This document shows, in pieces, positions 1 through 15,077 of a stretch of 16,538 nt of DNA. Position numbers and translations under genes: made by a program. The notes below the pieces were generated by a model, which ran no database searches, was not told where the DNA came from, and worked only from the letters and a program-made list of their open reading frames with translations. Positions within the stretch are counted from its first letter, which is position 1. Each line of letters opens with the position of its first letter. The DNA lies in IMG/VR virus record IMGVR_UViG_2541047850_000009, one strand, 5' to 3'. The stretch is from a virus (lineage: Duplodnaviria; Heunggongvirae; Uroviricota; Caudoviricetes).

Positions 1-1230
1 ATGAGCAGAGCACTTAACAAACTGAGCGATACACAGCTGAGGAAAATCAACGGCACACCCGCCCAAAAAACAGCCTTTCTTAATGACGGTGGAAACCTGA
101 GCGTCAGGCATTCAACCAGTGGCCTTTTAACCTGGTATTTCACTTACAGGGCCGGAACGGGAAGGGGGGCACCACCGGAACGCATTAAGCTGGGAAATTA
201 TCCTGATCTGAGCCTGAAATCAGCCAGGGAAAAAGCCGCCCAGTGTCGCGCATGGCTGGCAGAGGGGAAAAATCCACGTCATGAGCTTAATTACACCGTA
301 CAGGAAGCGTTAAAGCCGGTAACGGTTGGTGATGCGCTCACCTACTGGCTTGAGTCGTACGCAAAGGAAAACCGTGTGGATTATGACCCACTGAAAAAGC
401 GGCTAAATAATCACGTAATACAGCACATTGGCCCTATGCCGCTGGATAAATGCGAGCTACGGCACTGGCTGGCCTGTTTTGATCGGGTGGCAAAGCAAGC
501 CCCTGTTTCCGCCGGGTTCCTGCTACAGACATGCAAGCAGGCGCTTAAGTTCTGCCGGAAGCGGCGCTATGCAATCAGCAACGTTCTTGATGATATGAGT
601 GTGGCGGACGTTGGGAAAAAACCGGATATAAGCGAGCGTGTCTTAAGCAACAAAGAACTTGGCGAATTATTGCAGGCACTGGACAAAAAAATATTCTCCC
701 CCTACTACATCGCGCTAATCCGCCTCCTGATTGTGTTCGGATGCCGGACGGTCGAACTTAGGTTATCGGAGATCGGCGAGTGGGATTTTACCGAAATGCT
801 CTGGACTGTTCCGAAGGAGCACAGCAAAACGAAGGTAGCCATATTCCGGCCCATACCGGAAGCAATACTGCCGTTCGTCACGCAGCTGGTGGAGCAGAAC
901 AAGCACACGGGCTTATTGCTGGGGGAAGTGAAACAGGAAACAAGCGTGTCGCAGTACGGCAGATTAGCGCACAGGAGGCTAAATCACCCTCACTGGTCAC
1001 TACATGACATCCGGCGCACCTTTACAACGATGCTGAACGATTTAGGCGTGGATCCTCACGTCGTGGAGCAGCTTACAGGCCACCAGATGCCAGGAATGCA
1101 GCGAGTTTATAATCATTCCCGTTATCTGGATGCTAAACGCAATGCGCTGGATATGTGGATGGAGCGGTTAGGGATACTGGCGGGAACACATGAAAACGTA
1201 ACCGCACTACCAGTAGCCAGAAGAAAATAA
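1..1230 (+). CDS. int: Tyrosine-type site-specific integrase (P4 / CP4-57-like)
   Basis: 409-aa ORF. C-terminal catalytic region carries the conserved tyrosine-recombinase pattern (HDIRRTF, LTGHQ, terminal VYNHSRY with the catalytic Tyr). N-terminal domain is typical of P4-type integrases. Confidence 0.9.
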   Translation: MSRALNKLSDTQLRKINGTPAQKTAFLNDGGNLSVRHSTSGLLTWYFTYRAGTGRGAPPERIKLGNYPDLSLKSAREKAAQCRAWLAEGKNPRHELNYTVQEALKPVTVGDALTYWLESYAKENRVDYDPLKKRLNNHVIQHIGPMPLDKCELRHWLACFDRVAKQAPVSAGFLLQTCKQALKFCRKRRYAISNVLDDMSVADVGKKPDISERVLSNKELGELLQALDKKIFSPYYIALIRLLIVFGCRTVELRLSEIGEWDFTEMLWTVPKEHSKTKVAIFRPIPEAILPFVTQLVEQNKHTGLLLGEVKQETSVSQYGRLAHRRLNHPHWSLHDIRRTFTTMLNDLGVDPHVVEQLTGHQMPGMQRVYNHSRYLDAKRNALDMWMERLGILAGTHENVTALPVARRK

Positions 1231-1247
1231 TTTTTTTCGTGTTTTTT

Positions 1248-1263
1248 CAGTATGCGCATACTG
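1248..1263. promoter_or_regulatory. Perfect 16-bp palindrome CAGTATGCGCATACTG just downstream of the int stop
   Basis: Read directly from the sequence. Not followed by a T-run on either strand, so a protein-binding site is more likely than an intrinsic terminator. Confidence 0.3.
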
Positions 1264-1286
1264 GATATGCGAACAGATACAACGTG

Positions 1287-1323
1287 CAACAATGAGCAAC
1301 AATGTGGAACAACTACGAACAAG
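1287..1323 (-). repeat. Array of 10-bp-periodic direct repeats (minus-strand reading TTGTTC/TTGTTG + N4); candidate operator array
   Basis: Plus strand reads gcaacaa, gcaacaa, ggaacaa, cgaacaa at 10-bp spacing. The reverse complement matches 7465..7489 at 23 of 25 positions. Confidence 0.5.
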
Positions 1324-1593
1324 AGGCGAAAAAGCGTACGGATTTATAAGTGGCTGATTTTTAATGTGTTACTGGTTTTTATACACTAGCGAATCACTCT
1401 TTAAAGAGCGAGAAAAAAGGCATGGAACAATATTTTATGCCTTTGTATTAACATGAATTTAAAAGATTTTATTCTTACTGTTTCATTTTCTGTAAATCAT
1501 ACATCCTCAGTATTTGCCATTCATCACTCTAGCGGGAACAATACGACACAATAAGACACCTGATGACTCTTTAAGAAACGAAAGGGGGCAATA

Positions 1594-1782
1594 GTGTTAA
1601 GCACTGATCGGTTTATACGTGAAAAAGAATGCAAAAAACTAACCGGCCTTAGCCGTACGTGTCGCTACCGCCTGGAAAAGGCCGGACAATTCCCATCACG
1701 TCGTAAACTTGGCGGTCGTTCCGTTGGCTGGTCTTTATCCGAGGTTCTGGCCTGGAAGGATAGCTGCAAGGCAGTTCATTAA
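1594..1782 (+). CDS. alpA: AlpA/Vis-family winged-helix transcriptional regulator (excisionase-like)
   Basis: 62-aa ORF with GTG start 5 nt after AAAGGGGG. The motif LTGLSRTCRYRLEKAGQFP...KLGGRSVGW matches the AlpA-family pattern (GLSRSTIYR...G.FP.P.KLG.R.V.W). Confidence 0.85.
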   Translation: MLSTDRFIREKECKKLTGLSRTCRYRLEKAGQFPSRRKLGGRSVGWSLSEVLAWKDSCKAVH

Positions 1783-2051
1783 TCACGCTGGCGGCACACA
1801 GCCGCCACACATCAATCATCTGAACACAGAGCTATAACCATGAAGATTGAATATACGCCAGAACGTGGGCGGGGATTCGTTCGCCCTGGTGAAACTGAAA
1901 AACAACAAAATTGGGGTTTTTCAGGCATAACAAAAAGCGCCCAGTTACCTGAGCGCCTTTGTGAACGATTAACCTGCTGCACAAAAAATAAATATGAGCA
2001 TTGGAATTATATCAACTGTGTGAAGAAGCGCCACAATTGCCGGATTACAGG

Positions 2052-2080
2052 CAAAAAAAATGCGACCTATGATGGTCGCA
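2052..2080 (-). terminator. Rho-independent terminator for the leftward small-gene unit
   Basis: 7-bp stem TGCGACC / GGTCGCA with a 6-nt loop (2061..2080). On the minus strand it is followed by a run of 8 T (plus-strand A-run 2053..2060). Confidence 0.5.
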
Positions 2081-2156
2081 AAAATATGATATACATGTTG
2101 ATTACACTATGCATCGACAACGATGCCACATTTTTGGCTGGTTGGCAAATCTGTCA

Positions 2157-2342
2157 TCAGGGCGGACAACAACGCCACGATCTCATCTTTCTTGGGCAAT
2201 TTTTAAGAAAATCCTCAAGGGCAAATCTTTTTGGCCTTGCTTCCTGTTCATGGTCAGGCATTTCATCCATTTCTCTTAATTTTTTTTCTACCTGTCTTTC
2301 AAGTATGGATAATGCGATTTCCCGTAATTCTTCGTTGTTCAT
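2157..2342 (-). CDS. Hypothetical small protein (61 aa)
   Basis: ATG preceded by a strong RBS (CAGGAG, 6-nt spacer). Charged helical-looking N-terminus (MNNEELREIALSILERQVEKKLREMDEM). No family recognised. Confidence 0.5.
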   Translation of the reverse strand: MNNEELREIALSILERQVEKKLREMDEMPDHEQEARPKRFALEDFLKNCPRKMRSWRCCPP

Positions 2343-2399
2343 TGTCTACTCCTGTAAAGAAATGCGCCGTAGTTCCTCACACCACGGCGCTGATAGTTT

Positions 2400-2504
2400 T
2401 TATCCTTTGGGTTCTATGCCGCGTTGCTGTAATTCTTTGCGGATTATTCGCTTTATCCAGGCAGCAAGAGAATCATCGCCGTCCTGTTGTTGTGCCTTTT
2501 CCAT
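2400..2504 (-). CDS. Hypothetical very small protein (35 aa, MEKAQQQDGDDSLAAWIKRIIRKELQQRGIEPKG)
   Basis: Below the ORF-track size cut-off and found by hand translation. Same frame as and just upstream of 2157..2342 (minus), separated by two stops. Weak RBS (GGGAAAAG). Confidence 0.3.
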   Translation of the reverse strand: MEKAQQQDGDDSLAAWIKRIIRKELQQRGIEPKG

Positions 2505-2572
2505 CTTTTCCCGTAAGTCAGGATCTAAACGGAACTGGAACGGAGGATTACCACGCCTTTCGTTTTTGTGTA

Positions 2573-2628
2573 TTGACACGTTAATTACACCTCATGTAAT
2601 GTATTTATGTGTAATGACACATTACACA
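2573..2628. promoter_or_regulatory. Divergent control region with operator-like inverted repeats and a TTGACA -35-like hexamer
   Basis: TTGACA at 2573..2578. Inverted repeat ATTACA-N5-TGTAAT at 2584..2600. Perfect 21-bp palindrome TGTGTAATG-ACA-CATTACACA at 2608..2628. Four TGTAAT/ATTACA half-sites in total, placed between leftward (2504) and rightward (2709) gene starts. Confidence 0.45.
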
Positions 2629-2708
2629 CAATCAACACAAAAAGCAAAGCCCCGCACTGTAGGAGCAGTAACGGGGCTTCTAACCAACAACGTAAACTAG
2701 GAGCCGTT

Positions 2709-2906
2709 ATGGTTGCCGTAAATCATATACCACACCTTGTACACACACAAACGGCCTTTGTGTGGCGTTTTCTGGCACTGAGTGCCGGAGAATCTCAAAT
2801 CATCCACGTAACCGCCTGGACGGAACGCGAAGCGCGTAGCCGTTGCCCGTCCGGTTGTGTTGCTGTATTCGCCGCCCGTATTCGTCAGGGGTCACATCAT
2901 GCGTAA
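2709..2906 (+). CDS. Small conserved protein (66 aa), paralog of the C-terminus of the next gene; possibly Ash/Icd-like (family assignment from memory, unverified)
   Basis: ATG with AGGAG RBS at a 5-nt spacer. Shares FVWRF...VTA.TEREAR...ARIRQG..HA with 2899..3363. Stop overlaps the next start (ATGCGTAA). Confidence 0.6.
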   Translation: MVAVNHIPHLVHTQTAFVWRFLALSAGESQIIHVTAWTEREARSRCPSGCVAVFAARIRQGSHHA

Positions 2907-3363
2907 AAACCGCTTGCAAAAAATTATCACGGGGCTGTATGCTTCCCCCGTCGCCCACATGGCGACCGGGTTTGACAGCCTGAATACATCTGGCGGACAG
3001 CCGCCCACATCCGATAAGCGGTTTTTTTGTGTCCGTAAACCTACCCATACCCGCATTATGGCGGGGCGTAACGGGGGAGCCTTTGTGCTCGCTGGTTTCC
3101 AGATGACCAGTCTGTCAACCCTGTTACGTCTCGCCACCATGTTTGACAGCGTAGTAGCGAGACTCCTTAAAATTCATCTGGGAGCCTTTCACATGGCTGT
3201 ATCCGCACGCCCTTACTTTGTCTGGCGCTTTATGCAGTGCCTGACAGACAGCATTGCAATATTCACCGTTACCGCTGCCACTGAGCGCGAAGCACGCGCA
3301 CAGCTGCCGCACGCACATCTTATTTTTGTCGCCCGTATTCGTCAGGGGGTGTGCCATGCCTGA
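2899..3363 (+). CDS. Hypothetical protein (154 aa) whose C-terminal 50 aa is paralogous to the 2709..2906 product
   Basis: Translationally coupled start. C-terminus RPYFVWRF...TEREAR...ARIRQGVCHA. The same 19-nt DNA string cgcccgtattcgtcagggg occurs at 2873..2891 and 3330..3348. Confidence 0.6.
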   Translation: MRKNRLQKIITGLYASPVAHMATGFDSLNTSGGQPPTSDKRFFCVRKPTHTRIMAGRNGGAFVLAGFQMTSLSTLLRLATMFDSVVARLLKIHLGAFHMAVSARPYFVWRFMQCLTDSIAIFTVTAATEREARAQLPHAHLIFVARIRQGVCHA

Positions 3364-3676
3364 CATGACCAATTACCAGTACCTGATTAATCCGCATTTT
3401 AACTGTGAGCATGATATTGCTAAAAAGGTTTATTCCGCTGCGGATGGGGCTACTGACAATATATCAATGGCTGTTTCGTCAATTGGTAGCCTGATGTGGT
3501 ATGCGTCAGAAAATAAGGAATATGACGAAAAGGCCATGCGCATTGATATGGGTAATATCGGTTTGTTACTGGCAATGCTTGGGCAGTTTGATATTTCGTT
3601 ACGGTGCACCATTGAAAATGCCAAAGATGCATTAAATGCTATAAAGAAAGCGAATACTGATTTAAATCGGGGATAA
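3356..3676 (+). CDS. Hypothetical protein (106 aa), AT-rich gene
   Basis: ATG overlaps the preceding stop (ATGCCTGA); AGGGGG lies 8 nt upstream. GC content looks clearly lower than neighbouring genes by eye. No family recognised. Confidence 0.5.
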   Translation: MPDMTNYQYLINPHFNCEHDIAKKVYSAADGATDNISMAVSSIGSLMWYASENKEYDEKAMRIDMGNIGLLLAMLGQFDISLRCTIENAKDALNAIKKANTDLNRG

Positions 3677-3682
3677 ATAATC

Positions 3683-3982
3683 ATGAGAACATATTTATCT
3701 GGCTTGACTGCCAGCGGTTATGCACACCCCCAAATTATCCCCGGCGCTATTTATCTGGATAAGAACGGTAACAGAGTAACGGTAAAAGAACTGATGTTTG
3801 ACCGAGTGTATTTTATCCGTGATGGCTATTCATTTCTTAGTTCGCTGAACGTGGAGATCTTTATTAGCAGATTCAGGCGGGAAATCCCGCTTTCCAGAAA
3901 TAACCATGTGTCATGTATGGATGTTGATAAAAAACTACAGGAACTAAAAAACATGATTGCCGCGTGGAGAGAGCAGAAATGA
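3683..3982 (+). CDS. Hypothetical protein (99 aa), AT-rich gene
   Basis: ATG 6 nt after the previous stop. Its stop overlaps the primase start (ATGA). No family recognised. Confidence 0.5.
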   Translation: MRTYLSGLTASGYAHPQIIPGAIYLDKNGNRVTVKELMFDRVYFIRDGYSFLSSLNVEIFISRFRREIPLSRNNHVSCMDVDKKLQELKNMIAAWREQK

Positions 3983-6102
3983 AAAAAGCGCCAAATTTAA
4001 AACACCAGCCACGTGACAAAATGACGGAAGTCATCATTTTTGCGGGTAGTGATGCGTGGGCACATGCGAAGCAGTGGCAGGAACAGGACGGGCGACTGGC
4101 TGGCGACAGCGTGCCTCCTGTCTGGCTTGGAGAGCAACAACTTGCCGAACTGGATAAGCTGCAAATTGTGCCGGAAGGCCGAAAATCAGTACGCATATTC
4201 AGGGCCGGACATCTTGAGCCAGTAATGATCAAGGCGATTGGTCAGAAGCTGGCGGCGGCAGGCGTACAGGATGCAAATTTTTACCCTGATGGAATGCACG
4301 GTCAGGAGGTGGAGAACTGGCGCGAATATCTGGCCCGTGAGCGGCAGAATCTTTCTGATGGTCTGGTTATTGAGTTTCCGGTAAAGAAAAAAGATACCGG
4401 AAGCCATAGCGATGACGAATTAAAGCCACGCGTTGAAAGTCGCGCCGATGGTGTTTTCTGGGTAACGCCCAAAGTGGATAAGCAGTCAGGCGAAATTATC
4501 CGGCCTGAGACGTGGTTATGTTCTCCGCTTGAACTACTGGGAACGGGGACGATCGGTAAAGAGCATTACCGCGTGATGCGCTGGAAAAAAACCGCAAACC
4601 ATGAAGTCATCACAATGGCGATCCCGTGTGGTGGTATCGGCGACCGTGACGGCTGGCGGTTACTTAAAGATCACGGGCTGAACGTGACAACCAACGGCAA
4701 ATACAGGGCAATCCTGGCGGACTGGATGCAGTTAAGCGGAAGCCATGAGGAATGGCAGTTAAGCACAACAACGGGCTGGCATTTTGGCGCGTACATCATG
4801 CCGGACGGTTCGATCATTGGTGAATCTGAAAAACCGATCCTGTTTACCGGAAAAAGCGCCGCGATTAACGGTTATTCCGTGGCGGGCACGGCGGATGGCT
4901 GGCGCGACAGCGTGGCGCGGCTGGCTGGCGGTAATGCCTCAATGATGCTGGGTGTGGCAACGTCACTGGCAGCGCCTTTAATTGGCCTTGTGGGTGCTGA
5001 CGGCTTCGGGGTGCATCTTTTCGAACAGTCATCGGCAGGTAAGACCACCACGCAGAACATCGCATCAAGTTTATGGGGAGAGCCGGACGCGCAGCGGCTG
5101 ACCTGGTACGGCACGGCGTTAGGTATTGCCAATGAGGCCGAGGCCCATAATGACGGGCTTTTACCACTGGATGAGATAGGCCAGGCCGGAAATGCGCGGG
5201 AAGTGTCAACGTCTGCTTATACGCTGTTTAACGGTTCAGGGAAATTGCAGGGGGCGAAGGATGGCGGCAACAGGGAGATCAAACACTGGCGAACGGTGGC
5301 AATCAGCACCGGAGAAATGGACGTTGAGACATTCCTCAAAAGTGAGGGGATAAAAGTTAAGGCGGGGCAGCTTGTCCGACTGCTTAACGTTCCGATGGAA
5401 AAAGCCACGAAATTTCACGAATACAGCAACGGTAAGGAACATGCTGACGCGTTAAAGGATGCCTGGACAGCAAATCACGGGGCGGCGGGTCGTGAGTGGG
5501 TTAAATGGCTGGCAGGCCACCAGCAGGAGGCAAAGGATACGGTAAGGGAATGCCGCGAACGGTGGCGCAACCTGATACCGGAGAGCTACGGCGAGCAGGT
5601 CCACCGCGTGGGTGAACGTTTCGCCATACTGGAGGCCGCGCTTGTGCTTTCCGGTCATGTAACTGGCTGGGTCGTGCAGGAATGCCGCGACGCGATACAG
5701 CATAACTTTAATGCCTGGGTGAAGGAGTTCGGCACGGGTAACAGGGAATTTAAACAGATGGTTGAACAGGCTGAGGCGTTTTTGTCGTCGTTTGGGTTTA
5801 GCCGCTACCTTCCGTACCCCAATACAGATGAGCGTGATTTACCGATTAAAGAGCTTGCCGGATACAGAAAAGGGAGCATTCGCAACGAAGATGACGAGAT
5901 GCGCTATTACACGTTCCCGCACGTGTTTGAGAGTGAGATAGCGAAGGGATTTAATCCGGCGCATTTTGCGCGTGCCCTGGATGCTGCCGGAATGCTGGAG
6001 AAGGGAAGCGATCGCCGATACAAAAAAAAGGCGCTGGGCAAGATTGGGGGTAAGCAGCATGTTTTTTACGTGCTGATGTTCCAGCCTGATGATGAAGATT
6101 AA
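3979..6102 (+). CDS. Primase-helicase type replication protein (DUF927 / D5-like NTPase, P4 alpha-like)
   Basis: 707-aa ORF. P-loop-like FEQSSAGKTT and Walker-B-like LLPLDEIG in the central region. Sits immediately upstream of an iteron array. Domain family assigned from memory of typical satellite annotations. Confidence 0.75.
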   Translation: MKKAPNLKHQPRDKMTEVIIFAGSDAWAHAKQWQEQDGRLAGDSVPPVWLGEQQLAELDKLQIVPEGRKSVRIFRAGHLEPVMIKAIGQKLAAAGVQDANFYPDGMHGQEVENWREYLARERQNLSDGLVIEFPVKKKDTGSHSDDELKPRVESRADGVFWVTPKVDKQSGEIIRPETWLCSPLELLGTGTIGKEHYRVMRWKKTANHEVITMAIPCGGIGDRDGWRLLKDHGLNVTTNGKYRAILADWMQLSGSHEEWQLSTTTGWHFGAYIMPDGSIIGESEKPILFTGKSAAINGYSVAGTADGWRDSVARLAGGNASMMLGVATSLAAPLIGLVGADGFGVHLFEQSSAGKTTTQNIASSLWGEPDAQRLTWYGTALGIANEAEAHNDGLLPLDEIGQAGNAREVSTSAYTLFNGSGKLQGAKDGGNREIKHWRTVAISTGEMDVETFLKSEGIKVKAGQLVRLLNVPMEKATKFHEYSNGKEHADALKDAWTANHGAAGREWVKWLAGHQQEAKDTVRECRERWRNLIPESYGEQVHRVGERFAILEAALVLSGHVTGWVVQECRDAIQHNFNAWVKEFGTGNREFKQMVEQAEAFLSSFGFSRYLPYPNTDERDLPIKELAGYRKGSIRNEDDEMRYYTFPHVFESEIAKGFNPAHFARALDAAGMLEKGSDRRYKKKALGKIGGKQHVFYVLMFQPDDED

Positions 6103-6124
6103 TCCCCTGTGTGAGGAAAAAAAT

Positions 6125-6463
6125 TGCGGGTTATGCGGGTTATCCTGTGTATAAGTGTATTAAGTGCATGAATATAAAGGAAACCAATAACCCGCACGTA
6201 ACCCGCAAAAGGGCATTTATAACCCGCAAAAGCACGATTATAACCCGCTGGCGAATAACTGAAGTAACACCGGACAGTCATGCGTAACCCGCAGAAAAAA
6301 ACCGTTTGCGGGTTATTTTGAGCGTTTTGCGGGTTACGTGGTGAGCAAATAATAAACAGGGCGTTTTGCAAAATACTGATATAAAAGGATAAAAAATGGT
6401 TAGCACGCTAAGATAACCCAATAACCCGCATAACCCGCACATGTTTCTATATATATATAAATT
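6125..6463. repeat. Replication origin candidate: iteron array (9-bp TAACCCGCA in both orientations) plus AT-rich tract
   Basis: TGCGGGTTA at 6125, 6134, 6307, 6328. TAACCCGCA at 6188, 6199, 6220, 6285, 6422, 6431, with degenerate copies at 6241 and 6414. AT-rich tttctatatatatataaatt at 6443..6463. Confidence 0.7.
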
Positions 6464-6473
6464 GAGGTGGCAA

Positions 6474-6725
6474 ATGACCAGAACACGCAGAGACAGAACA
6501 GAGCCAAAATATAAAGCGTTAGACATGACTGAGCACACCTTAAAGGTGGCAATCAGAACGATAGACCGCCACACGCGGGAAGGATACGCGAAGGAACATC
6601 CCGACCTGATAAGCGCATTCATGACCACGACGGCGGCAAACTTTGCCACGCTGACAGAGCGGGAGATTGCCGAAGCGGAACAGGTAACAACCATCAACGT
6701 TAAAACCGGAGAGCAGACAGCATGA
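6474..6725 (+). CDS. Hypothetical basic small protein (83 aa)
   Basis: ATG after GAGGTG. Stop overlaps the ssb start (ATGA). Lies between the origin and ssb. No family recognised. Confidence 0.5.
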   Translation: MTRTRRDRTEPKYKALDMTEHTLKVAIRTIDRHTREGYAKEHPDLISAFMTTTAANFATLTEREIAEAEQVTTINVKTGEQTA

Positions 6726-7132: not shown

Positions 7133-7144
7133 GGGGTGGGGACG

Positions 7145-7417
7145 ATGGTACATGACCGCATAGCGGAAGAACTGGAGGCGAAAGGCTTTTACCGGAGAGC
7201 GTCGGCGCGATGGGGTGAAGTCATGCAACTGGTGGAGACAGACAAGGAACGGCATCACATCACGATGCGACGGCTGGAATGTTCCAGGAAGGCACAGAGG
7301 CCACCGGAGCCGCCGGATAATTACGGAGACCTGAAAAAGGCGGTCGATCGCACTTATGCCGAAATGGGTATGGATGGTGCTGGTGATGAAATATGGCGAA
7401 ATTACCAGGACAGATAA
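7145..7417 (+). CDS. PerC-family-like transcriptional regulator
   Basis: 90-aa ORF from the ATG at 7145 (the track start at 7136 is GTG). N-terminal motif DRIAEELEAKGFYRRASARWGEV resembles the PerC/Pch signature (AE.LE..G.WRRAA.RW) as I recall it. Confidence 0.5.
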   Translation: MVHDRIAEELEAKGFYRRASARWGEVMQLVETDKERHHITMRRLECSRKAQRPPEPPDNYGDLKKAVDRTYAEMGMDGAGDEIWRNYQDR

Positions 7418-7704: not shown

Positions 7705-8862
7705 ATGCCGAGAATAATCGAATTACGCCAGCAGAAAACCGCCATTAAAAATCAGATGCGCGACATGCTGGAGAACGCGGAAAAAGAAAACCGCAGCCTT
7801 AACGATGCTGAGGGCGCAAAATTTGACGAATTACGCGCTAAAGCTGAATCCCTCGATAAAGACATTTCCCGCCTTGAAGCCATTGCAGACGAAGAGCGCA
7901 GTAAACCAGGCAAAAACAGCCAGACCACTGACCCCGCAGAACTACGCAACTACATTCTGACAGGTGAAACCCGCGCATTAAGTACAGGCGTTCCCGCTGA
8001 TGGTGGTTATACCGTTATCCCCGAACTGAACACCGAAATCATGCGAATGCTGGCGGATGAGTCCACCATGCGCCGCATCTGTACCGTGAAGAAAATCAGC
8101 AGCAACGAGTTTAAGCAGCTTGTTTCCGCTGGCGGTGCGACCGTTAACCACGGTGAAGAGGGTAAGACACGCGAACAGACCAGCACCCCGCAGATTAACG
8201 AGGTGAGCATTAAGCTGTATCCGGTCTATGCGTACCCGCGCACCACACAGGAAATCGTGGATTTTTCCGATGTGGACATCCTTTCATGGCTGACGGGTGA
8301 GATTGGCGACACCTTCACGGAAACCGAAGAAAGCGATCTGGTTGTGGGCGACGGTGACAAAAAAGCAAAAGGTTTTTTATCCGTACCCCGTGCAGAGAAG
8401 AACGACAAAGAGCGTGATTTTGGTACGTTGCAGGTAATTAAACCTTCCGAATCTCTGGCGTGGACATCTGCGGACCCGCTGATCGACCTGAAATTTGCAT
8501 TACGTAAAAAATACCGCAAAAACGCGGTCTGGGTGGTTAACTCCACGACGGCGGCAAAACTTCAGAAGGTGAAGAACGCGAACGGTGATTACATCTGGCG
8601 CGACCGTTTACAGGCGGGTGATCCTGATACGTTACTGGGCCTTCCGGTCGAATATCTGGAGTTTATGCCGGATAACGTTATTGCCCTGGGTGACTTCAAA
8701 CGCGGTTACTACATTGTTGATCACGAAACAGGTGTTCGCACCAGACCGGACAACCTCACAGAGCCGGGCTTCATCAAAATTTTCACGCAGAAATATTTAG
8801 GCGGTGGCGTGGTGGATTCGAACGCGATCAAGATTCTGGAACTGCCACAGGACGACGATTAA
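7705..8862 (+). CDS. Major capsid protein, HK97 fold, with N-terminal scaffold-like (delta) coiled-coil domain
   Basis: 385-aa product. N-terminal 90 aa is coiled-coil-like and charged (IIELRQQKTAIKNQMRDMLENAEK...). Followed by a prohead protease gene. Start chosen at the ATG at 7705 rather than the upstream track start. Confidence 0.88.
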   Translation: MPRIIELRQQKTAIKNQMRDMLENAEKENRSLNDAEGAKFDELRAKAESLDKDISRLEAIADEERSKPGKNSQTTDPAELRNYILTGETRALSTGVPADGGYTVIPELNTEIMRMLADESTMRRICTVKKISSNEFKQLVSAGGATVNHGEEGKTREQTSTPQINEVSIKLYPVYAYPRTTQEIVDFSDVDILSWLTGEIGDTFTETEESDLVVGDGDKKAKGFLSVPRAEKNDKERDFGTLQVIKPSESLAWTSADPLIDLKFALRKKYRKNAVWVVNSTTAAKLQKVKNANGDYIWRDRLQAGDPDTLLGLPVEYLEFMPDNVIALGDFKRGYYIVDHETGVRTRPDNLTEPGFIKIFTQKYLGGGVVDSNAIKILELPQDDD

Positions 8863-8873
8863 CAGCATACAGA

Positions 8874-8901
8874 AGGGGCTTAAAAGCCCCTTTAGTGTTT
8901 T
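8874..8901 (+). terminator. Stem-loop after the capsid gene (partial terminator or attenuator, or stabilising hairpin)
   Basis: Stem AGGGGCT / AGCCCCT with TAAA loop, followed by ttagtgtttt. Confidence 0.4.
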
Positions 8902-8916
8902 ATGGGTGAAAAAATT

Positions 8917-9474
8917 ATGAAGAGTATGGAAATCCGGTCATCGGAAATCACTACCAGCGGAGCCGGTACGCTGACGGGCTACGTTGTTCGCTGGGATAAG
9001 CTTTCAGAACTGCTATGGGGGGAGTTTTACGAAAAATTCCAGCGGGGGGCGTTTACTGAGTGGCTTGCGGCGGGTAATGACGTTCGCGGCCTGTATGAGC
9101 ATGACCACAGCATGTTACTGGGGCGCACCCGTTCCGGCACGCTGAAACTGGAAGAGGACGAAACAGGGTTACGCTTTGAACTGACCCCACCGGATACCAG
9201 TACAGGGCGCGACGTTATCGAACTGGTTAAGCGTGGGGACATCTCGGGGATGAGCTTTGGCTTTCGCTCCCGTAAGGATGTATGGGATACCACAACAGAT
9301 CCATGCGTGCGCACCGTGCTGGTGGCGGAACTATACGAAATTACCGTTACATCCGTACCGGCTTACCCTGATTCCGGCGTGGAGCTGGCCCGCCGCTCCC
9401 TGTACGAGCAGCACCCCGAAAAAATGCCGCGTGCGGATAATCGCCGCTGGTGGGCGGATTTAGCGGGGGTGTGA
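8917..9474 (+). CDS. Prohead (capsid maturation) protease, HK97 family
   Basis: About 185 aa with HK97-protease-like length and position directly after the capsid gene. Alternative in-frame start at 8902. Confidence 0.8.
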   Translation: MKSMEIRSSEITTSGAGTLTGYVVRWDKLSELLWGEFYEKFQRGAFTEWLAAGNDVRGLYEHDHSMLLGRTRSGTLKLEEDETGLRFELTPPDTSTGRDVIELVKRGDISGMSFGFRSRKDVWDTTTDPCVRTVLVAELYEITVTSVPAYPDSGVELARRSLYEQHPEKMPRADNRRWWADLAGV

Positions 9475-9475
9475 T

Positions 9476-10687
9476 ATGTGGCCTTTCAGAAGAAAAAAAG
9501 AGCAGCGCAGCATGACGCTTGATGAGTTTATGGCGCTGGCTGGCACATCGAACACGGGGGCGGGTGAGTACGTATCATCGGGGACAGCGGAATCACTGCC
9601 CGCCGTCATGAACGCCGTGACGGTCATCTCTGAGGCGGTGGCTACCATGCCGTGTTACCTGTACCTGGTACGCAATGAGAAGGGGAAGGAGGCCCGAGAG
9701 TGGTTTGATTCTCATCCGGTCGATCACATCCTCAACGAGCGCCCGAACGCATGGCAAACCCCCTACCAGTTTAAGCGAATGATGATCCGCCACTGCCTGT
9801 TAAACGGTAATGCTTATGCGGTGATTCGGTGGGGGCGTGATGGTTTTCCGGTGGCTTTACATCCTTACCCGCCGCAGTCGGTGAACGTGGAGCAGACAGG
9901 TGAGCATAACTGGCGCTACTGCATCACTGACGCCTACACCGGAAACACCCGCAACTATTTACCGTGGGAGGTTCTCCACCTTCGTTACTCCACGGATGAC
10001 GGTTTTATGGGGCGCTCACCTGTAACCATCTGCCGCGAATCGCTGGGGCTTGGGCTGGCCCAACAACGCCACGGCGCGAGCGTGATGCGTGATGGCATGA
10101 TGGCGGCAGGGGTTATCACGTCAGGCGAGTGGCTGGACGGCGTGAAGGGTAAACAGGCATTAGCCGCACTGGAACGCTACAAAGGGGCCAGAAACGCCGG
10201 AAAAACGCCCATCCTTGAAGGGGGTATGAGCTATCAGCAGCTGGGCATGAGTAATCAGGATGCTGAATGGCTGGCCTCCCGTCGCTTCACCATTGAAGAC
10301 ATCGCCCGAATGTTCAACGTCTCGCCGATTTTTTTGCAGGAATACAGCAACAGCACCTACAGCAATTTCAGCGAGGCAAGCCGCGCATTTCTCACCATGA
10401 CGATGCGCCCGTGGCTGGCGAACTTTGAGCAGCAGATAAAAAACGCCCTGCTGGTGGCCTCGCCTGTACCTGGTATCCGGTATCAGGTGGAGTTTGACAG
10501 CGCGGACCTGTTACGGGCCACACCTGGCGAACGCTTTGCCACCTATGAACGCGGCATCAAATCCGGCGTTATGTGCCCGAACGAAGCCCGCGAACGTGAA
10601 GGGCTGTCCCCGCGTGATGGTGGTGATGAGTTCAGCCAGGCATGGAAACAGGAAGTAAAAATCAGCGAGGGAGAAAAACCGGAATGA
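9476..10687 (+). CDS. Portal protein (HK97-type)
   Basis: 403-aa ORF with portal-like length and composition. Start is 1 nt after the protease stop. Flanked by head genes. Confidence 0.85.
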   Translation: MWPFRRKKEQRSMTLDEFMALAGTSNTGAGEYVSSGTAESLPAVMNAVTVISEAVATMPCYLYLVRNEKGKEAREWFDSHPVDHILNERPNAWQTPYQFKRMMIRHCLLNGNAYAVIRWGRDGFPVALHPYPPQSVNVEQTGEHNWRYCITDAYTGNTRNYLPWEVLHLRYSTDDGFMGRSPVTICRESLGLGLAQQRHGASVMRDGMMAAGVITSGEWLDGVKGKQALAALERYKGARNAGKTPILEGGMSYQQLGMSNQDAEWLASRRFTIEDIARMFNVSPIFLQEYSNSTYSNFSEASRAFLTMTMRPWLANFEQQIKNALLVASPVPGIRYQVEFDSADLLRATPGERFATYERGIKSGVMCPNEAREREGLSPRDGGDEFSQAWKQEVKISEGEKPE

Positions 10688-11022
10688 ACATAGGGCGACT
10701 GCGTGACAGGATAACGATTCAGACCCTGAAACAGACCAGGGATATAACCGGCGAAATACTCGAAACGTGGGTGGACGGTCACACACTCTGGGCAAGCGTG
10801 AACATGATCAGCAGCAAGGAGGCCATTTCATCGGGTGCAGAACTGGCGACTGGAACGGTAAGGATATGGATACGCTACAGGAAGGACATCAACGCCACCA
10901 GCCGGATAAAGGTCAATACGGGGCCGCTGGCGGGGCGTGTACTGAATATCATCGGGCAGCCGCTGCCGGATGCCGCCAGGACACGCCTTGAAATTCTTTG
11001 TCGTGAGGGCGCGGAAAAATGA
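10684..11022 (+). CDS. Head closure / head-tail joining protein
   Basis: 112 aa. N-terminal GRLRDRITIQ...TRD...W matches the head-closure family pattern (G.LR.R.TIQ....TRD). ATGA overlap with the portal stop. Confidence 0.75.
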   Translation: MNIGRLRDRITIQTLKQTRDITGEILETWVDGHTLWASVNMISSKEAISSGAELATGTVRIWIRYRKDINATSRIKVNTGPLAGRVLNIIGQPLPDAARTRLEILCREGAEK

Positions 11023-11315
11023 CAGAAGAACTTATCACCCTGGAAGAAGTGAAACTCCATTGCCGCATCGATGGCGACGAGGAAGACCAGTTAATCAGCG
11101 GATACATTGCCGCATCGCTTGAGGCGTGCCAGATACATATAGGCAGGCGCTTTGATGACGGGCTGGCGTTCACGCCAGCCATAAAGATTGGCTGCATGAT
11201 GTTTATCGCTCACCTGTATGAAAATCGCCAGATTGTCGCGGATAACGCAAAAACACGCGTACCCATGACGATAGGCGCACTCTGGACGGCTTACCGTGAT
11301 GTGGGGGTGTACTGA
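11019..11315 (+). CDS. gp6-like head-tail connector protein
   Basis: 98 aa. N-terminal ITLEEVKLHCRIDGDEEDQLISGYIAAS matches the gp6-like connector pattern (ITLEE.K.HLRID.DDED.LI...I.AA). ATGA overlap with the previous gene. Confidence 0.7.
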   Translation: MTEELITLEEVKLHCRIDGDEEDQLISGYIAASLEACQIHIGRRFDDGLAFTPAIKIGCMMFIAHLYENRQIVADNAKTRVPMTIGALWTAYRDVGVY

Positions 11316-11755
11316 TGCCGTGGCAACCATTAAGACGATGCACAGAACCAGGCTGTAACAGGCGCGTGAAGTCCGGCAAGTGTGAGGAGCACAGGCGGGC
11401 GGCATGGCGTGCAGAGGATGCCAGACGAGGACACCGCCGCGCGCGTGGGTACTCCAGACAGTGGGACAAATACCGCGCCATGTATCTGAGTAAAAACCCG
11501 TTATGCGTGCGATGCCTTGAGAAGGGGATATATACGCCCGCCGTGGTGGTGGATCACATTATCCCCATCGATGGCGGCGATGATGTTCTCTTCTGGCCCG
11601 AATGGAACCATCAACCATTGTGCCAGGCGTGTCATAACCAGAAAACGAAATGGCTTGATCTGGCAACAAAAAGCAAGCGTGCCGCAGGTGGATTTCGTGA
11701 AGAGGAAGAACGGGCCGCTAACCGCAATAACTGGATGTATGACGCTGATGAATGA
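11315..11755 (+). CDS. HNH endonuclease (terminase-associated)
   Basis: Paired Cys motifs (CTEPGC, CVRC, CQACHNQ) and the His-Asn-His core VVDHIIP...WNHQPLC. Sits immediately upstream of terS/terL, as in cos-type HK97-like phages. Confidence 0.88.
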   Translation: MPWQPLRRCTEPGCNRRVKSGKCEEHRRAAWRAEDARRGHRRARGYSRQWDKYRAMYLSKNPLCVRCLEKGIYTPAVVVDHIIPIDGGDDVLFWPEWNHQPLCQACHNQKTKWLDLATKSKRAAGGFREEEERAANRNNWMYDADE

Positions 11756-11921
11756 GCGGAAACAAAACCGCCTTATCCGTGGACTTATAAGGCAGCGTGA
11801 CGCATGGAAGACACAGGAAACAGGGCATAAAGATAAAGCGTCAGGACGCGCAGAACGCATCACAGCGAAGCGATTAACCGACCGTGACCGCGAGGTTATG
11901 GAATGTTTCCGCAATCGCTGA
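11748..11921 (+). CDS. Possible small basic protein (57 aa, MNERKQNRLIRGLIRQRDAWK...)
   Basis: Only the part of track ORF 11517..11921 that does not overlap HNH. No convincing RBS. May instead be non-coding DNA holding the packaging site. Confidence 0.22.
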   Translation: MNERKQNRLIRGLIRQRDAWKTQETGHKDKASGRAERITAKRLTDRDREVMECFRNR

Positions 11922-11924
11922 TGA

Positions 11925-12044
11925 GGCTGTATGACGGGGTGGGGGGCGTTTTCAGGACAAACCCGACCCCGCCGGGCACCGACCGCCTCCTCAAATTTTT
12001 ATGCACGGGAATTTTTTGAAAAATAATCTGGCGAAAAAATAAGC
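11925..12044. other. Candidate cos / packaging-initiation region upstream of terS
   Basis: G-rich (gacggggtggggggcg) then C-rich (cccgaccccgccgggcaccgaccgcctcc) segment, then an AT-rich tract. Lies between HNH and terS, where HNH-dependent cos sites usually sit. Confidence 0.3.
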
Positions 12045-12401
12045 ATGTCAAGACCACCGAAAGCCCCCGCCTACCTGGATGACATCGCCGTGAAGCAGTG
12101 GCGGGAAAAATCGCGGCAGCTTGCGGAACGGGGAGACCTGACCCCCGCCGACTGGAGCAATCTGGAACTGTATTGTGTCAACTACTCCATTTACCGGAAA
12201 GCCGTTGCAGACCTTGCGGCGCGCGGGTTCAGCATTGTTAACAGTCAGGGCGGCGAGAGCAGAAACCCCGCATTAAGCGCAAAATCCGACGCTGAAAGGG
12301 TGATGATAAAAATGGCCTCCTTGCTCGGTTTTGACCCGATAAGCCGCCGTAAAAATCCACCGGAAACAGAAGAAGAGGACGAGCTTGACCGCCTGGAATA
12401 A
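12045..12401 (+). CDS. terS: Terminase small subunit (P27-family-like)
   Basis: 118 aa, directly upstream of and overlapping terL. Acidic C-terminal tail. N-terminus (AVKQWREKSRQLAERGDLTPADWSNLELYC) resembles P27-type TerS. Confidence 0.75.
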   Translation: MSRPPKAPAYLDDIAVKQWREKSRQLAERGDLTPADWSNLELYCVNYSIYRKAVADLAARGFSIVNSQGGESRNPALSAKSDAERVMIKMASLLGFDPISRRKNPPETEEEDELDRLE

Positions 12402-14046
12402 GTACGCAGAAGACGTAAAAACGGGCAAAATTCCGGCCTGTAAACGGCTGAAACAGGCCGTTAAACGGTACTTTTCGGACCTTGAAAGCCCCCTTTACAC
12501 GTTCGATCGTGAGGTTGTGGAGCGGTTTATTGCCTTTTCCAGGGTGTGCCCGCACGTAAAAGGGCCGATGCGTGGCAGACCCATTGAGCTGGAGCCGTGG
12601 CAGCAGTTCGCCTTTGCGTGCATCCTCGGCTTTAAGGTTAAGGCCACCGGACGGCGCAAATACACGAGCGCCTTTATCGAAGTGCCGCGCAAAAATGCGA
12701 AATCCACGACCGCCGCGATTCTGGCTAACTGGTTTCTGATTATGGAGAACGGTCAGCAGGATATCTACACCGCAGCGGTGAGCCGTGACCAGGCGCGGAT
12801 CGTCTTTGATGATGCGCGTCAGATGTGCCTTTTATCCCGACCGTTACGCAGGCGGGTGAATATTCAGGCGCATAAGGTGATGCACCCGAAAAGCAACAGC
12901 CTGTTAAAGCCGCTGGCAGCAAAAGCGGCAACCATCGAGGGAACAAACCCCAGCCTTTCCATCGTGGACGAATACCACTTGCACCCCGATAACGGCGTTT
13001 ATTCCGCGCTTGAGCTGGGGATGGGCGCACGTCCCGAAGGGCTGTTATTTGCTATTACCACATCAGGCAGTAACGTCGTTTCAGCCTGTAAGCAGCACTA
13101 TGATTATTGCTGCCAGATCCTGGACGGCGAAGAGGTCAACGATTCAATTTTTGTACTGATTTACGAACTGGACGACGAAAACGAGGTTGATGATCCGGCG
13201 ATGTGGATAAAGGCGAACCCTAATATTGATGTTTCCGTGGATCGTGAAAAACTGGCCTCAACCATCCAGAAAGCGCGGGGTATTCCGTCGCAGTGGGTGG
13301 AGATGATGACAAAGCGATTTAATATCTGGTGCCAGGGGGCTACCCCGTGGATGGGTAACGGCGCATGGGCTGAGTGTGCCGGAACGTTCACGGAGGAAGA
13401 TTTACACGGCCAGGAGTGTTACGCGGGGCTGGACTTATCATCAACCAGCGATATTTCCAGCGTGTGCTATGCCTTTCCGGTCGGTAAAACCATTATGCTG
13501 GTTTCCCGTCACTATCTGCCGGAATTTCAGCTACAGAACCCCGCCAATAAAAACCGCGCCATCTATCGTCAGTGGGCTAAAGCAGGCTGGATACGCACAA
13601 CGCCTGGCGACTGCATTGATTACGACCGGATCAGAGATGACATCATGCAGGACGCGGAGAAATTTAATATCAGGCTGGTGGGCTTTGATACGTGGAACGC
13701 CACGCATCTCAGAACGCAATTACAGGGGGCAGGTTTTGAGGTGGAGCCGTTCCCGCAAACCTACCTCAGATTCAGTCCGGCGGCGAAATCGTTCGAAGTT
13801 TTTGTTAACCGCAGGGTGATTGTGCATCGTGGCGATCCGGTGTTGTCCTGGTCGATGAGTAACGTCGTGATGCAGAGTGACGCGAACGCCAATATCAAGC
13901 CGAACAAGAAAAAATCACCGAACAAGATAGACCCGAGCGTGGCGGCGCTGATGGCGTTTGGTACATTCCAGGCAGAGCATGAGGATTTTGCTTTTGATAT
14001 AAGCGACAGCCACCGCCAGAAACTGGAAGAATTTAGCGGGGTGTAA
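12385..14046 (+). CDS. terL: Terminase large subunit
   Basis: 553-aa ORF. P-loop-like VPRKNAKST in the N-terminal ATPase region and an acidic nuclease-type C-terminal half. Apparent TTG start at 12385, 5 nt after GAGGA, overlapping the terS end. Confidence 0.88.
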   Translation: MTAWNKYAEDVKTGKIPACKRLKQAVKRYFSDLESPLYTFDREVVERFIAFSRVCPHVKGPMRGRPIELEPWQQFAFACILGFKVKATGRRKYTSAFIEVPRKNAKSTTAAILANWFLIMENGQQDIYTAAVSRDQARIVFDDARQMCLLSRPLRRRVNIQAHKVMHPKSNSLLKPLAAKAATIEGTNPSLSIVDEYHLHPDNGVYSALELGMGARPEGLLFAITTSGSNVVSACKQHYDYCCQILDGEEVNDSIFVLIYELDDENEVDDPAMWIKANPNIDVSVDREKLASTIQKARGIPSQWVEMMTKRFNIWCQGATPWMGNGAWAECAGTFTEEDLHGQECYAGLDLSSTSDISSVCYAFPVGKTIMLVSRHYLPEFQLQNPANKNRAIYRQWAKAGWIRTTPGDCIDYDRIRDDIMQDAEKFNIRLVGFDTWNATHLRTQLQGAGFEVEPFPQTYLRFSPAAKSFEVFVNRRVIVHRGDPVLSWSMSNVVMQSDANANIKPNKKKSPNKIDPSVAALMAFGTFQAEHEDFAFDISDSHRQKLEEFSGV

Positions 14047-14059
14047 TGAGGTCAGCAGC

Positions 14060-14341
14060 ATGACAGAAGCCGAAATAACGGGATTAATCCGCCGCGTTGC
14101 CGGAATCAGCCAGCAGGCTGACGAACAGGCCACGCAGCCGGACAGCGTGACAGCCGAAAACTATGCGCGTGTTGTTGCTGAGGTGATGCGCCGTGATGGT
14201 ATAGAACTTAATGGCGTGGATATGCGCAACATACGAACCAGAGTTCTTGAGTTGCTGGCCTACCGTCGCCGTGTGGAGATGTATCGGGAGAAGGAGAAAA
14301 TAACGTACCACTGGAAGAAGCCGGAGCGGTTGCGGCGGTAA
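14060..14341 (+). CDS. Hypothetical protein (93 aa), last gene of the island
   Basis: ATG 9 nt after GAGG. Arg-rich C-terminus. No family recognised. Confidence 0.45.
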   Translation: MTEAEITGLIRRVAGISQQADEQATQPDSVTAENYARVVAEVMRRDGIELNGVDMRNIRTRVLELLAYRRRVEMYREKEKITYHWKKPERLRR

Positions 14342-14595
14342 CTGGTTGATATTCCCGACGGCCCAAAAATGGGTTGGCTACACCCCTCACAACTACGACA
14401 TTTTCGCAGTTTAATTAATGGTCAGCTTAATCGCTAACCCGCTGATATTTTCGGAAACCTCAATTTGAGGAAGTCGGCGCGGTAACTCGCTGAACTTTAA
14501 GCAAAGCGCAAAATTGCGCTTGCTGAATAATCATTATGATTACGCAGATGATTAAGGAATGACCGAAGGCGGAAATTCGCCTGTGGTTAATGGGG

Positions 14596-14615
14596 GAGTT
14601 GCAGATCTGCAACTC
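14596..14615. repeat. Perfect 20-bp palindrome GAGTTGCAGATCTGCAACTC
   Basis: Read directly. One of several dyads in the non-coding right end, alongside TGGGGATCCCCA at 14847..14858, AAGCGCAA-AA-TTGCGCTT at 14499..14516 and CCGGAA-AAAAA-TTCCGG at 14828..14844. Confidence 0.4.
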
Positions 14616-14938
14616 GACCATGAAACTACGGAAACTACCCGTAGTTTGGGTAGTAAGAGTAACACCCAGATTTTGGGGCTTACTCGTGATACCCAAATTT
14701 GGGGTATCAGTGGCAACCATAACGACTTTCGTTACGGTTGATGCTTTTACCCCATTGGGGGAAAGGTATTACGATAATCATAACACCTACCGAACAGGTA
14801 AAGCCCACCAGCCTGATTAACGTTTAACCGGAAAAAAATTCCGGTAGGTGGGGATCCCCATATCGACATTAACGCCCCTCATGAATTGGTGCGCTTCCCC
14901 CTGGAAAGATGATCCGCCTGTATATTTCTTGTGTCTAT

Positions 14939-14958
14939 TTGTTCCACGTTGTTTCATA
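14939..14958 (+). repeat. Third copy of the TTGTTC repeat motif (TTGTTCCACG TTGTTTCATA), about 120 bp from the phoQ stop
   Basis: 15 of 15 identity with 7475..7489. Confidence 0.45.
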
Positions 14959-14971
14959 CAGTGCACCGAAC

Positions 14972-14993
14972 GGTGTAGTCACTGGTGTAGTCA
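14972..14993 (+). repeat. Tandem direct repeat GGTGTAGTCA (two copies, 12-bp period)
   Basis: Read directly: cGGTGTAGTCAct GGTGTAGTCAtt. Confidence 0.4.
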
Positions 14994-15077
14994 TTTTGCG
15001 ATTTTTGGCACTTTTTGCGGTGCAGATTACTTAATTAAATCAATGGTTTGTCTTGATATAGTGATAAAAGGACATAT

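Follow-up and report, generated by a model that had tools for sequence, protein, structure and literature searches.

The stretch of DNA analysed here, referred to below as the window (16,538 nucleotides; IMG/VR virus record IMGVR_UViG_2541047850_000009, assigned to the Caudoviricetes), very probably carries in positions 1-15079 a capsid-forming phage-inducible chromosomal island (cf-PICI), namely a mosaic allele of EcCIEDL933, the prototype of the class, with its insertion point at the 3' end of phoQ. An earlier note, made from the letters of the sequence alone, had described positions 1-15077 as a satellite without tail genes that builds and fills heads of its own, borrows tails from a helper phage and resembles the cf-PICIs. 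Its recognition of an island stands; its extent does not, as the right end lies at 15079, 2 nucleotides further on, and the left end falls outside the window. The proposal of own heads and borrowed tails and of membership in the cf-PICIs is supported by the relationship to EcCIEDL933: the best matches among 5,426 complete Escherichia coli genomes are O157:H7 islands, including that of EDL933, with 88% coverage of the window at 96.5% DNA identity. A match to at least part of the window is found in every one of the 5,426 genomes, as is to be expected with phoQ included, and in 102 of them an island covers at least 80% of the window. EcCIEDL933 occupies the same site between roxA and phoQ and has the same order of genes from int to the last open reading frame (ORF) and the same placement of the iteron origin. 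The raw sequence alone was thus sufficient to recover a real and recently described class of satellites, which build their own T=4 capsids and package themselves. The kind of element is already known and the allele adds no new principle to the cf-PICI story; the sole new detail relative to the published element is an antisense RNA switch located before the replication genes.

From position 1 to about 14341 the predicted genes form a string in a single orientation (plus strand, as are all features described below unless stated otherwise), which is followed by non-coding DNA and then by phoQ on the minus strand (15078-16538). Profile hidden Markov models and the count of iterons bear out the satellite backbone that had been read from the sequence, i.e. 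a P4-type integrase, AlpA, a primase and an iteron origin. The P4-type tyrosine integrase (1-1230, 409 aa; Pfam Arm-DNA-bind_3, 8e-18; Phage_integrase, 1e-16) is 96.8% identical in amino acid sequence to the EDL933 integrase, and AlpA (1594-1782; Pfam Phage_AlpA, 5.7e-17) is 98.4% identical to its EcCIEDL933 counterpart. AlpA is the master activator of Gram-negative PICIs, and mutation of the alpA gene of EcCIEDL933 abolishes both induction and transfer (10.1101/2022.09.08.507074). The "primase" of the earlier note is indeed a replication protein, whose precise type is that of a DUF927/Cch-type primase-helicase (3979-6102, 707 aa; Pfam DUF927, 1.6e-48; phrog_1139, DNA primase, 1.6e-190; 97.5% identical to EDL933). 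Just after this gene lies the iteron origin (6126-6438) with 11 copies of the word TAACCCGC in both orientations; the whole window contains 12 copies against 0.72 expected, a number reached in 0 of 200 shuffles. The left half is completed by genes for a hypothetical 83-aa protein (6474-6725; phrog_1231, 1.3e-51, no function given; 89.2% identical to EDL933), a single-stranded DNA-binding protein (SSB; 6722-7132; Pfam SSB, 6.4e-16) and a PerC-family regulator (7145-7417; Pfam PerC, 3e-43).

The right half encodes a full head and packaging set of the HK97 type, every member of which named in the earlier note was recovered, intact, with Pfam and PHROGs. It begins with an HK97-fold major capsid protein (7705-8862, 385 aa; Pfam Phage_capsid, 2.3e-61; phrog_10, 7e-88), which has an N-terminal delta (scaffold) region of about 100 aa and is 99.5% identical to the product of EcCIEDL933 gene 1786; its start is most likely at 7705, giving 385 aa as in EDL933, and not at 7657. 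The genes that follow code for an S78 prohead maturation protease (8902-9474; Pfam Peptidase_S78, 7e-48; 97.9% identical to EDL933, as with the further values in this list), a portal protein (9476-10687; Pfam Phage_portal, 1.4e-90; 99.0%), the head closure protein Hc1 (10684-11022; Pfam Phage_HCP, 5e-24; phrog_25; 94.6%), the gp6-type head-tail adaptor Ad1 (11019-11315; Pfam Phage_connect_1, 1.5e-11; phrog_40; 99.0%), an HNH endonuclease acting as packaging cofactor (11315-11755; Pfam HNH, 1.2e-8; phrog_144, 1.4e-44; 99.3%), a 60-aa homologue of the product of EcCIEDL933 gene 1792 (11739-11921; phrog_3173; 98.3%; the gene number being assigned by position, counting from capsid gene 1786), a small terminase subunit (TerS) of the P27 family (12045-12401; Pfam Terminase_4, 1.3e-23; 99.2%) and the terminase's large subunit (TerL; 12385-14046; Pfam TerL_ATPase and TerL_nuclease; 98.4%). 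The last gene of the island specifies a hypothetical 93-aa protein (14060-14341; phrog_1561, 2.9e-56; 87.1%). All the named head and packaging proteins have the lengths of their EDL933 counterparts, lack internal stops and are 94.6-99.5% identical to them, Hc1 being the most diverged; the truncation of head proteins, which the earlier note had named as fatal to its own reading, is therefore not seen. The reported position of the terminase at the end of the head module was also confirmed, and the series capsid-protease-portal-connectors-HNH-TerS-TerL is the conserved order of proteobacterial cf-PICIs (10.1101/2022.09.08.507074).

When the window is set against the published cfPICI component list of SatelliteFinder (PMC10085698), judged here from Pfam and PHROGs matches with SatelliteFinder itself not run, 11 of 11 core components are present, none of them truncated and all scoring over the curated Pfam cut-offs. 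These are the three backbone genes of the left half, for an integrase, an AlpA-type regulator and a primase-replicase, together with capsid, prohead protease, portal, head-tail adaptor, connector/closure, HNH, TerS and TerL. The components forbidden in this class, namely tail, holin and lysis genes, were not found within the part of the element contained in the window: in searches of Pfam, PHROGs and NCBIfam no credible ORF matched any tail, holin, endolysin or spanin family, in agreement with the original reading. The size of about 15 kb and the att-bounded location at a specific site also agree with the class, the left att being placed from related loci, as does the order of the head genes.

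The properties established for the prototype allow a life cycle to be proposed. EcCIEDL933 is induced by the helpers HK106 and HK446 in an alpA-dependent manner, and forms capsids of 46 x 42 nm in negative-stain electron microscopy from an island-encoded protein; mutation of each of its packaging genes abolishes transfer except for 1792, where transfer is severely impaired, while mutations in the capsid and terminase genes of the helper have no effect and the tail genes of the helper are required (10.1101/2022.09.08.507074). Its capsid has T=4 symmetry and a diameter of 47.5 nm in a 3.24 Å cryo-electron microscopy structure, with the N-terminus of the capsid protein cleaved, and cf-PICIs release tail-less filled heads able to join the tails of other phages (10.1101/2025.02.11.637232). 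At protein identities of 94.6-99.5% it may be inferred that helper induction, own small capsids, exclusive self-packaging and dependence on helper tails also apply to the island in the window. It would remain integrated and silent until the lytic cycle of a helper siphophage turns on alpA; AlpA, needed for excision, replication and transfer of EcCIEDL933, would act likewise here, given its 98% identity. The integrase would then excise the island at the GGACATATTT core, and the primase-helicase with SSB would replicate the resulting circle from the iteron origin at 6126-6438, as the anatomy of the region suggests. Small T=4 procapsids would be assembled from the capsid protein, which includes the delta domain, together with the S78 protease and the portal, as happens in EcCIEDL933, to whose proteins these three are 97.9-99.5% identical. 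The HNH protein, TerS and TerL would cut the island's own cos, which probably lies at 11922-12044, and package one genome of about 15.3 kb per head as in the prototype, the small size of the head excluding the helper genome. The adaptor and head closure proteins would finish the neck, after which the filled, tail-less heads would join tails of the helper or of other phages, as shown for cf-PICIs, and the helper would lyse the cell. The ability of cf-PICIs to attach tails from different phages lets them cross species boundaries.

The attachment site was defined against an insert-free genome, a comparison which the earlier note had called for. The attR core GGACATATTT (15070-15079), which overlaps the stop codon of phoQ, emerged from comparison with the empty site of K-12, where the gap between roxA and phoQ is 75 bp, and with the EDL933 island at its two junctions; the insertion site is accordingly the roxA|phoQ intergenic region, as in EDL933. 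Position 1 of the window is the ATG of int, which leaves attL and the promoter of int beyond the window. An identical 409-aa integrase is encoded in six other loci, in all of which the att core is found 181 bp upstream of int, followed to the left by roxA, pepT and potA, with roxA as the immediate neighbour and no called gene in the 181-bp stretch. From this we infer a position for the island's own attL some 181 bp upstream of position 1, which would give an island of about 15.3 kb. In some genomes with this integrase (L006-L008) the end of a lambdoid prophage, encoding Lom, the C-terminus of a fibre and an NleB effector, was observed 5-10 kb to the left of int in the region of the pot operon; this is a neighbouring resident phage separate from the island, as potA, pepT and roxA stand between the two. 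The motif GGTGTAGT(C/T)A was noted as a doublet close to each end of the island, on the right about 77-98 bp inward of attR and on the left about 25-46 bp upstream of the integrase gene. The right-hand one consists of two GGTGTAGTCA repeats (14972-14993), candidate arm-type integrase sites, and a like doublet (GGTGTAGTTA) is found just upstream of int in locus L003 (9955-9976) and in EDL933. These doublets are probably arm-type binding sites of the integrase.

The mosaic nature of the allele is most apparent in the segment from alpA to the primase gene, where about 2 kb (1981-3937) are largely unrelated to EDL933 in pairwise BLAST. Positions 1783-3350 match at 98.9% islands of the E110019 type, which share the identical integrase and use an AAA_25 replicase. 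From 3330 onwards the window matches a module made up of the genes for a 106-aa hypothetical protein, a DUF4222 protein and the primase. The identical 707-aa primase is found in classical PICIs located between cspD and clpS and in a further cf-PICI at the pntB site (L011). That PICIs and cf-PICIs swap their left halves has already been described (PMC10085698), and the island in the window demonstrates such traffic of regulatory and replication modules between cf-PICIs on the one side and classical PICIs and P4-like elements on the other. Differences from EDL933 are also seen further to the right: EDL933 has about 330 additional bp with a 74-aa ORF between perC and the capsid gene, absent from the window, and the stretch before attR is shorter in the window.

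This exchanged segment contains the RNA switch. The island of EDL933 shows no C4 RNA at the Rfam gathering threshold, the only level searched there, whereas the window has one together with its targets, a second icd-like gene and the 106-aa ORF. The cassette opens with the gene for a 65-aa Icd-like protein (2709-2906; NCBIfam phage_ICD_like, 5.8e-18). An a1/b1 target motif with a hairpin follows (2937-3028; b1 TTGACAG at 2972-2978, a1 CATCTGG at 2987-2993), of which 2937-2986 match the Rfam c4-a1b1 model at 46.8 bits against a gathering score of 46.7, and an IsrK-like terminator hairpin between a1/b1 and C4 scores 35 bits, below threshold. The C4/CI-type antisense RNA itself (3054-3141) matches Rfam RF01695 at 72.6 bits against a gathering score of 45, and carries an a' loop in hairpin 2 (CCAGATGA, 3099-3106) and a b' junction (CTGTCAA, 3112-3118). 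Immediately downstream are the b2 and a2 targets (3143-3184; b2 TTGACAG at 3143-3149, a2 TCATCTGG at 3174-3181), with a2 overlapping the Shine-Dalgarno sequence GGGAG (3180-3184) of a second icd-like gene (56 aa, 3193-3363; NCBIfam phage_ICD_like, 1.6e-14). The latter is the first gene of the replication operon, in which it is followed by the genes for the 106-aa protein (3356-3676; phrog_15327, 2.5e-71, no function given; its start overlaps the end of the second icd-like gene), the DUF4222 protein (3683-3982; Pfam DUF4222, 1.4e-16; an allele only 30% identical to that of EDL933) and the primase-helicase, as a tightly coupled string whose stops and starts overlap or nearly abut. The 106-aa gene accompanies the same primase in classical PICIs.

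To evaluate the predicted pairings we aligned 11 homologous C4 cassettes and used slid pairings and 500 shuffles as controls. The a' loop has 10 different sequences in the 11 cassettes, each matched by complementary changes in a1 and a2, and b' occurs in two forms, with matching sequences in b1 and b2 for both. For the pairing of C4 with a2/b2, 97% of the cells are paired as against 30-53% in the slid controls, with 38 double-change cells over 8 pairs (observed value reached in 0 of 500 shuffles); for a1/b1 the corresponding values are 93% as against 20-43%, with 28 double-change cells over 7 pairs (observed value again reached in 0 of 500 shuffles). The targets in the window match the window's own C4 perfectly. 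When duplex energies of full-length C4 with its flanks were computed (RNAduplex-type), shuffles were more stable than the real sequence for a1/b1. The model match to RF01695, the upstream a1/b1 motif and the compensated a2/b2 pairing thus all place the RNA in the C4 family, and an RNA-based immunity switch, strongly supported by covariation, can be said to exist in some cf-PICIs. As a2 overlaps the Shine-Dalgarno sequence of the second icd-like gene, C4 most likely represses the replication operon in the manner of P1 and P4, by a block to translation, by premature termination or by both, and would keep the icd-106-aa-DUF4222-primase string off until induction.

The same layout is found in P4 and P1/P7, namely an a1b1/IsrK-like element, a C4-family RNA, downstream targets and a small first ORF. 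The P4 immunity region yields the same three Rfam matches in the same order (C4 at 74.9, IsrK at 60.8 and a1b1 at 44.1 bits), although the P4 operon after the CI RNA ends in the alpha primase and the cassette of the window stands upstream of DUF927. P1-like plasmids are 75-80% identical in DNA to the window from b1 to C4; relative to the immI region of P1/P7 (c4-icd-ant), no ant gene follows in the window and an extra icd-like gene and a divergent ribbon-helix-helix (RHH) gene precede. The compensated changes in C4 specificity resemble the difference in heteroimmunity between P1 and P7. We also compared the P4 "cI ORF" with a 168-aa ORF of the window as potentially related proteins and found no similarity, as is expected if both ORFs are artefacts over an RNA gene. 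Among the 5,426 E. coli genomes, 705 have a C4 cassette, in 230 chromosomal places and 654 on P1-like plasmids, where it is the canonical c4-icd-ant. The six chromosomal places inspected all belong to islands of satellite type, with icd-like genes adjacent, and the three viewed with wide flanks contain int, a helix-turn-helix regulator and a primase gene. A recent survey found Icd-like proteins in most of the satellites catalogued, and our literature search returned no paper pairing "C4 antisense" with PICI. These observations raise the possibility, to which we would assign about an equal chance of being right or wrong, that in many E. coli satellites, the present cf-PICI among them but not the EcCIEDL933 prototype, the replication operon is controlled by an antisense RNA of the P4/P1 type, the hypervariable a' loop of which creates many mutually heteroimmune classes common to satellites and P1-like phage-plasmids, and that, together with an RHH protein, this could constitute a layer of repression beyond the accounts centred on AlpA. 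If so, this layer could influence which co-resident elements silence each other.

The RHH protein was uncovered in the segment between alpA and the first icd-like gene. On the plus strand this segment contains a 286-aa ORF (1840-2700), which matches nothing in Pfam, PHROGs or NCBIfam and which we rejected as a gene, as conservation follows a frame on the minus strand instead; it is probably spurious and masks a leftward gene for an Arc/Mnt-like RHH protein (2400-2579, minus strand, 59 aa), divergent from the replication operon. The 59-aa frame is kept as a protein at 48-60% identity among relatives with no more than 70-85% identity in their DNA. Its profile yields weak but concordant RHH matches: the best in the PDB is the Mnt repressor (E=0.031), with Arc at E=1.3; Pfam Arc matches 3 of 4 homologues (E=0.006), and NCBIfam YlcI/YnfO scores below threshold. 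The gene annotated downstream of alpA in EDL933 is 247 aa long in RefSeq, and an unannotated RHH homologue is present in that island too. The "gene downstream of alpA" of RefSeq and of the cf-PICI papers thus probably masks a small leftward RHH regulator. Between the RHH gene and the first icd-like gene lies a divergent intergenic region of 129 bp (2580-2708), a candidate operator/promoter region with a palindrome of 12-nt arms and 14-nt direct repeats. The palindrome TTATGTGTAATG/CATTACACACAA is at 2605-2631, and a conserved hairpin AAGCCCCG...CGGGGCTT at 2647-2679 stands just before icd-like gene 1; in L010 and L011, whose RHH variant is another one, the palindrome at this place also differs (ATGGTAATTACC, twice). 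The RHH protein is a candidate repressor and may act on this promoter region. The earlier note's remark that the island has no obvious CI-type repressor holds for proteins of the CI type but misses both the C4/CI-type RNA and the Arc/Mnt-like gene on the minus strand, which together offer starting points for understanding the silencing of Gram-negative PICIs. Downstream of the RHH gene, following a conserved terminator-like hairpin (2390-2364), is a 61-aa ORF (2157-2342, minus strand) whose start codon is conserved in L011 and L001; it matched no family.

Other interpretations of the island were weighed against its being a functional cf-PICI. One is that it is an inactive or decaying copy, for example one in which the recombinant regulatory region is incompatible with the rest. 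The segment 1981-3937 is indeed a patchwork of three different relatives, the exact combination occurs in no complete E. coli genome (the best coverage being 88%), and the roughly 330 bp that EDL933 has between perC and the capsid gene are missing. Against this, 17 of 17 compared ORFs are full length without stops, each regulatory block is intact in other islands, the second cf-PICI L011 has the same icd1-C4-icd2-primase-head layout, the C4 targets are a perfect match to the RNA of the window, and the 330-bp stretch is likewise absent from the E110019-type islands; we therefore consider decay improbable. Still less probable is that the window captures the head portion of an HK97-like prophage, complete or degraded, whose tail and lysis genes would lie immediately beyond the window, which the earlier note had itself named as the outcome that would overturn its proposal. 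The window does begin at the ATG of int, with its own left flank unseen, and L006-L008, with the identical integrase, have lambdoid remnants 5-8 kb to the left. On the right, where attR abuts phoQ, no such genes of the same element are present; on the left, they are contradicted by every related locus, as roxA, pepT and potA are the genes to the left of int in 6 of 6 loci with the identical integrase, the att core is 181 bp from int, and the lambdoid remnants beyond these genes are separate elements. Neither tail, lysis nor CI/Cro-type lysogeny modules are found in the attR-bounded DNA, the backbone is of a PICI type common to classical PICIs, and the capsid homologues of phages are at most 40% identical.

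The resemblance to HK97 itself extends to an HK97-fold capsid protein with a delta domain, an S78 protease, a portal, a gp6-type adaptor, a gp7-type closure protein and HNH-dependent TerS/TerL cos packaging. The gene order of HK97 is the reverse of that in the window for capsid-protease-portal and for Hc1-Ad1. In the window the terminase comes last and there are no tail, lysis or lysogeny modules, and the capsid of EcCIEDL933 is T=4 as against T=7 in HK97. The packaging modules of EcCIEDL933 and its helper HK106 have low protein identity, and most phage homologues are less than 40% identical (10.1101/2022.09.08.507074).

The least probable of the alternatives, with hardly any chance of being correct, is a classical PICI or P4-like satellite which remodels helper capsids instead of making its own. 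It draws on the fact that the integrase, AlpA, the primase module, PerC and the 93-aa gene (or one of the same size) are common to classical PICIs and that the C4/icd cassette is P4-like. The classical PICIs at cspD|clpS (L009, L010, L012 and L013) have the identical 707-aa primase, with size-matched 106-aa, DUF4222, 83-aa, SSB and PerC-family genes (identity was computed for the primase only), and in L009, L012 and L013 a gene alike in size and position corresponds to the 93-aa gene. They differ from the window in their integrase and site and depend on the capsid machinery of the helper; none showed a C4 at the gathering threshold. In these four islands lambda-type gpE-like and gpD-like genes replace the HK97-type head and terminase genes, with a Nu1-like gene in L012 and L013, and the window has no lambda-type gpE, gpD or Nu1 of this kind. 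It encodes instead a portal, a protease, a full-length capsid protein, an adaptor, a head closure protein, HNH and TerL; portal and head-tail connector/attachment proteins are forbidden in the PICI model of SatelliteFinder (PMC10085698). With P4 the window shares only the C4/CI RNA-icd cassette and the types of AlpA and integrase: no match to Sid, Psu or Delta was found, and the replication protein is of the DUF927/Cch type with no alpha-type (toprim) primase.

Several points weigh against a full transfer of the prototype's properties to this allele, and we keep them in view in reading it as a functional cf-PICI. The left junction is outside the window, and other genomes supply the evidence for attL and for the left neighbour. 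As 1981-3937 differs from the prototype, the induction by HK106 and HK446 and the helper range may not carry over, and as divergence within the late region peaks in Hc1 (94.6%) and the last ORF (87.1%), tail compatibility may differ; the connector region, in which Hc1 falls, is variable between islands (10.1101/2025.02.11.637232). The repressive roles proposed for C4 and for the RHH protein rest on homology and covariation, and the position given for cos is a prediction.

With regard to the latter, the probable cos region is the GC-rich intergenic stretch (11922-12044) between the HNH/1792 genes and terS. Two considerations suggest this placement: HK97-type packaging modules have the arrangement HNH-cos-terS, and the linear record of vB_KppS-Ant (LR881103) starts 14 nt before terS, though the point at which that record opens could be arbitrary. 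Two strong hairpins resembling terminators, with T-runs, were observed between perC and the capsid gene (7424-7441 and 7668-7697), the second ending 8 nt before the capsid ATG; they hint at antitermination or at a dedicated late promoter for the packaging operon. A scan of the window for promoter consensus sequences gave fewer matches than in shuffles. The window contains no tRNA genes, PADLOC detected no defence gene in it, and its credible unassigned small ORFs have no transmembrane-like segment. A PerC homologue of the PICI EcCIMP1 is reported to repress expression of LEE1 (PMC11773190), and the PerC of the island could on this precedent affect virulence regulation of the host in LEE-positive strains.

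Close relatives of the capsid protein in deposited phage genomes also have the dimensions of satellites. The capsid proteins of full-sized phages of 37-41 kb are at most 40% identical to that of the window, and the closest deposited "phage" capsids, at 58-65% identity, come from records of 15-16.5 kb. One of these is vB_KppS-Ant (L014; LR881103.1, "Escherichia phage", 16,548 bp), whose capsid protein is 65% identical and which has the full cf-PICI layout; a 765-aa "tape measure" gene directly after its terL occupies the variable cargo position, and its annotation may be wrong. The capsid protein of Pasteurella phage Pmp8 is 58% identical and that of Salmonella phage As1 34%, and both records are near the size of a cf-PICI.

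Between the last ORF and attR are about three tandem units of about 46 bp (GGTAACNNGNTGATATT...; 14335-14560), as compared with 6-7 units in EDL933 (L001, 18430-18900); every unit contains an internal hairpin, the stem of which varies from unit to unit. One of the units holds the iteron word TAACCCGC, and as a speculation the units could form a second replication site similar to the crr of P4.

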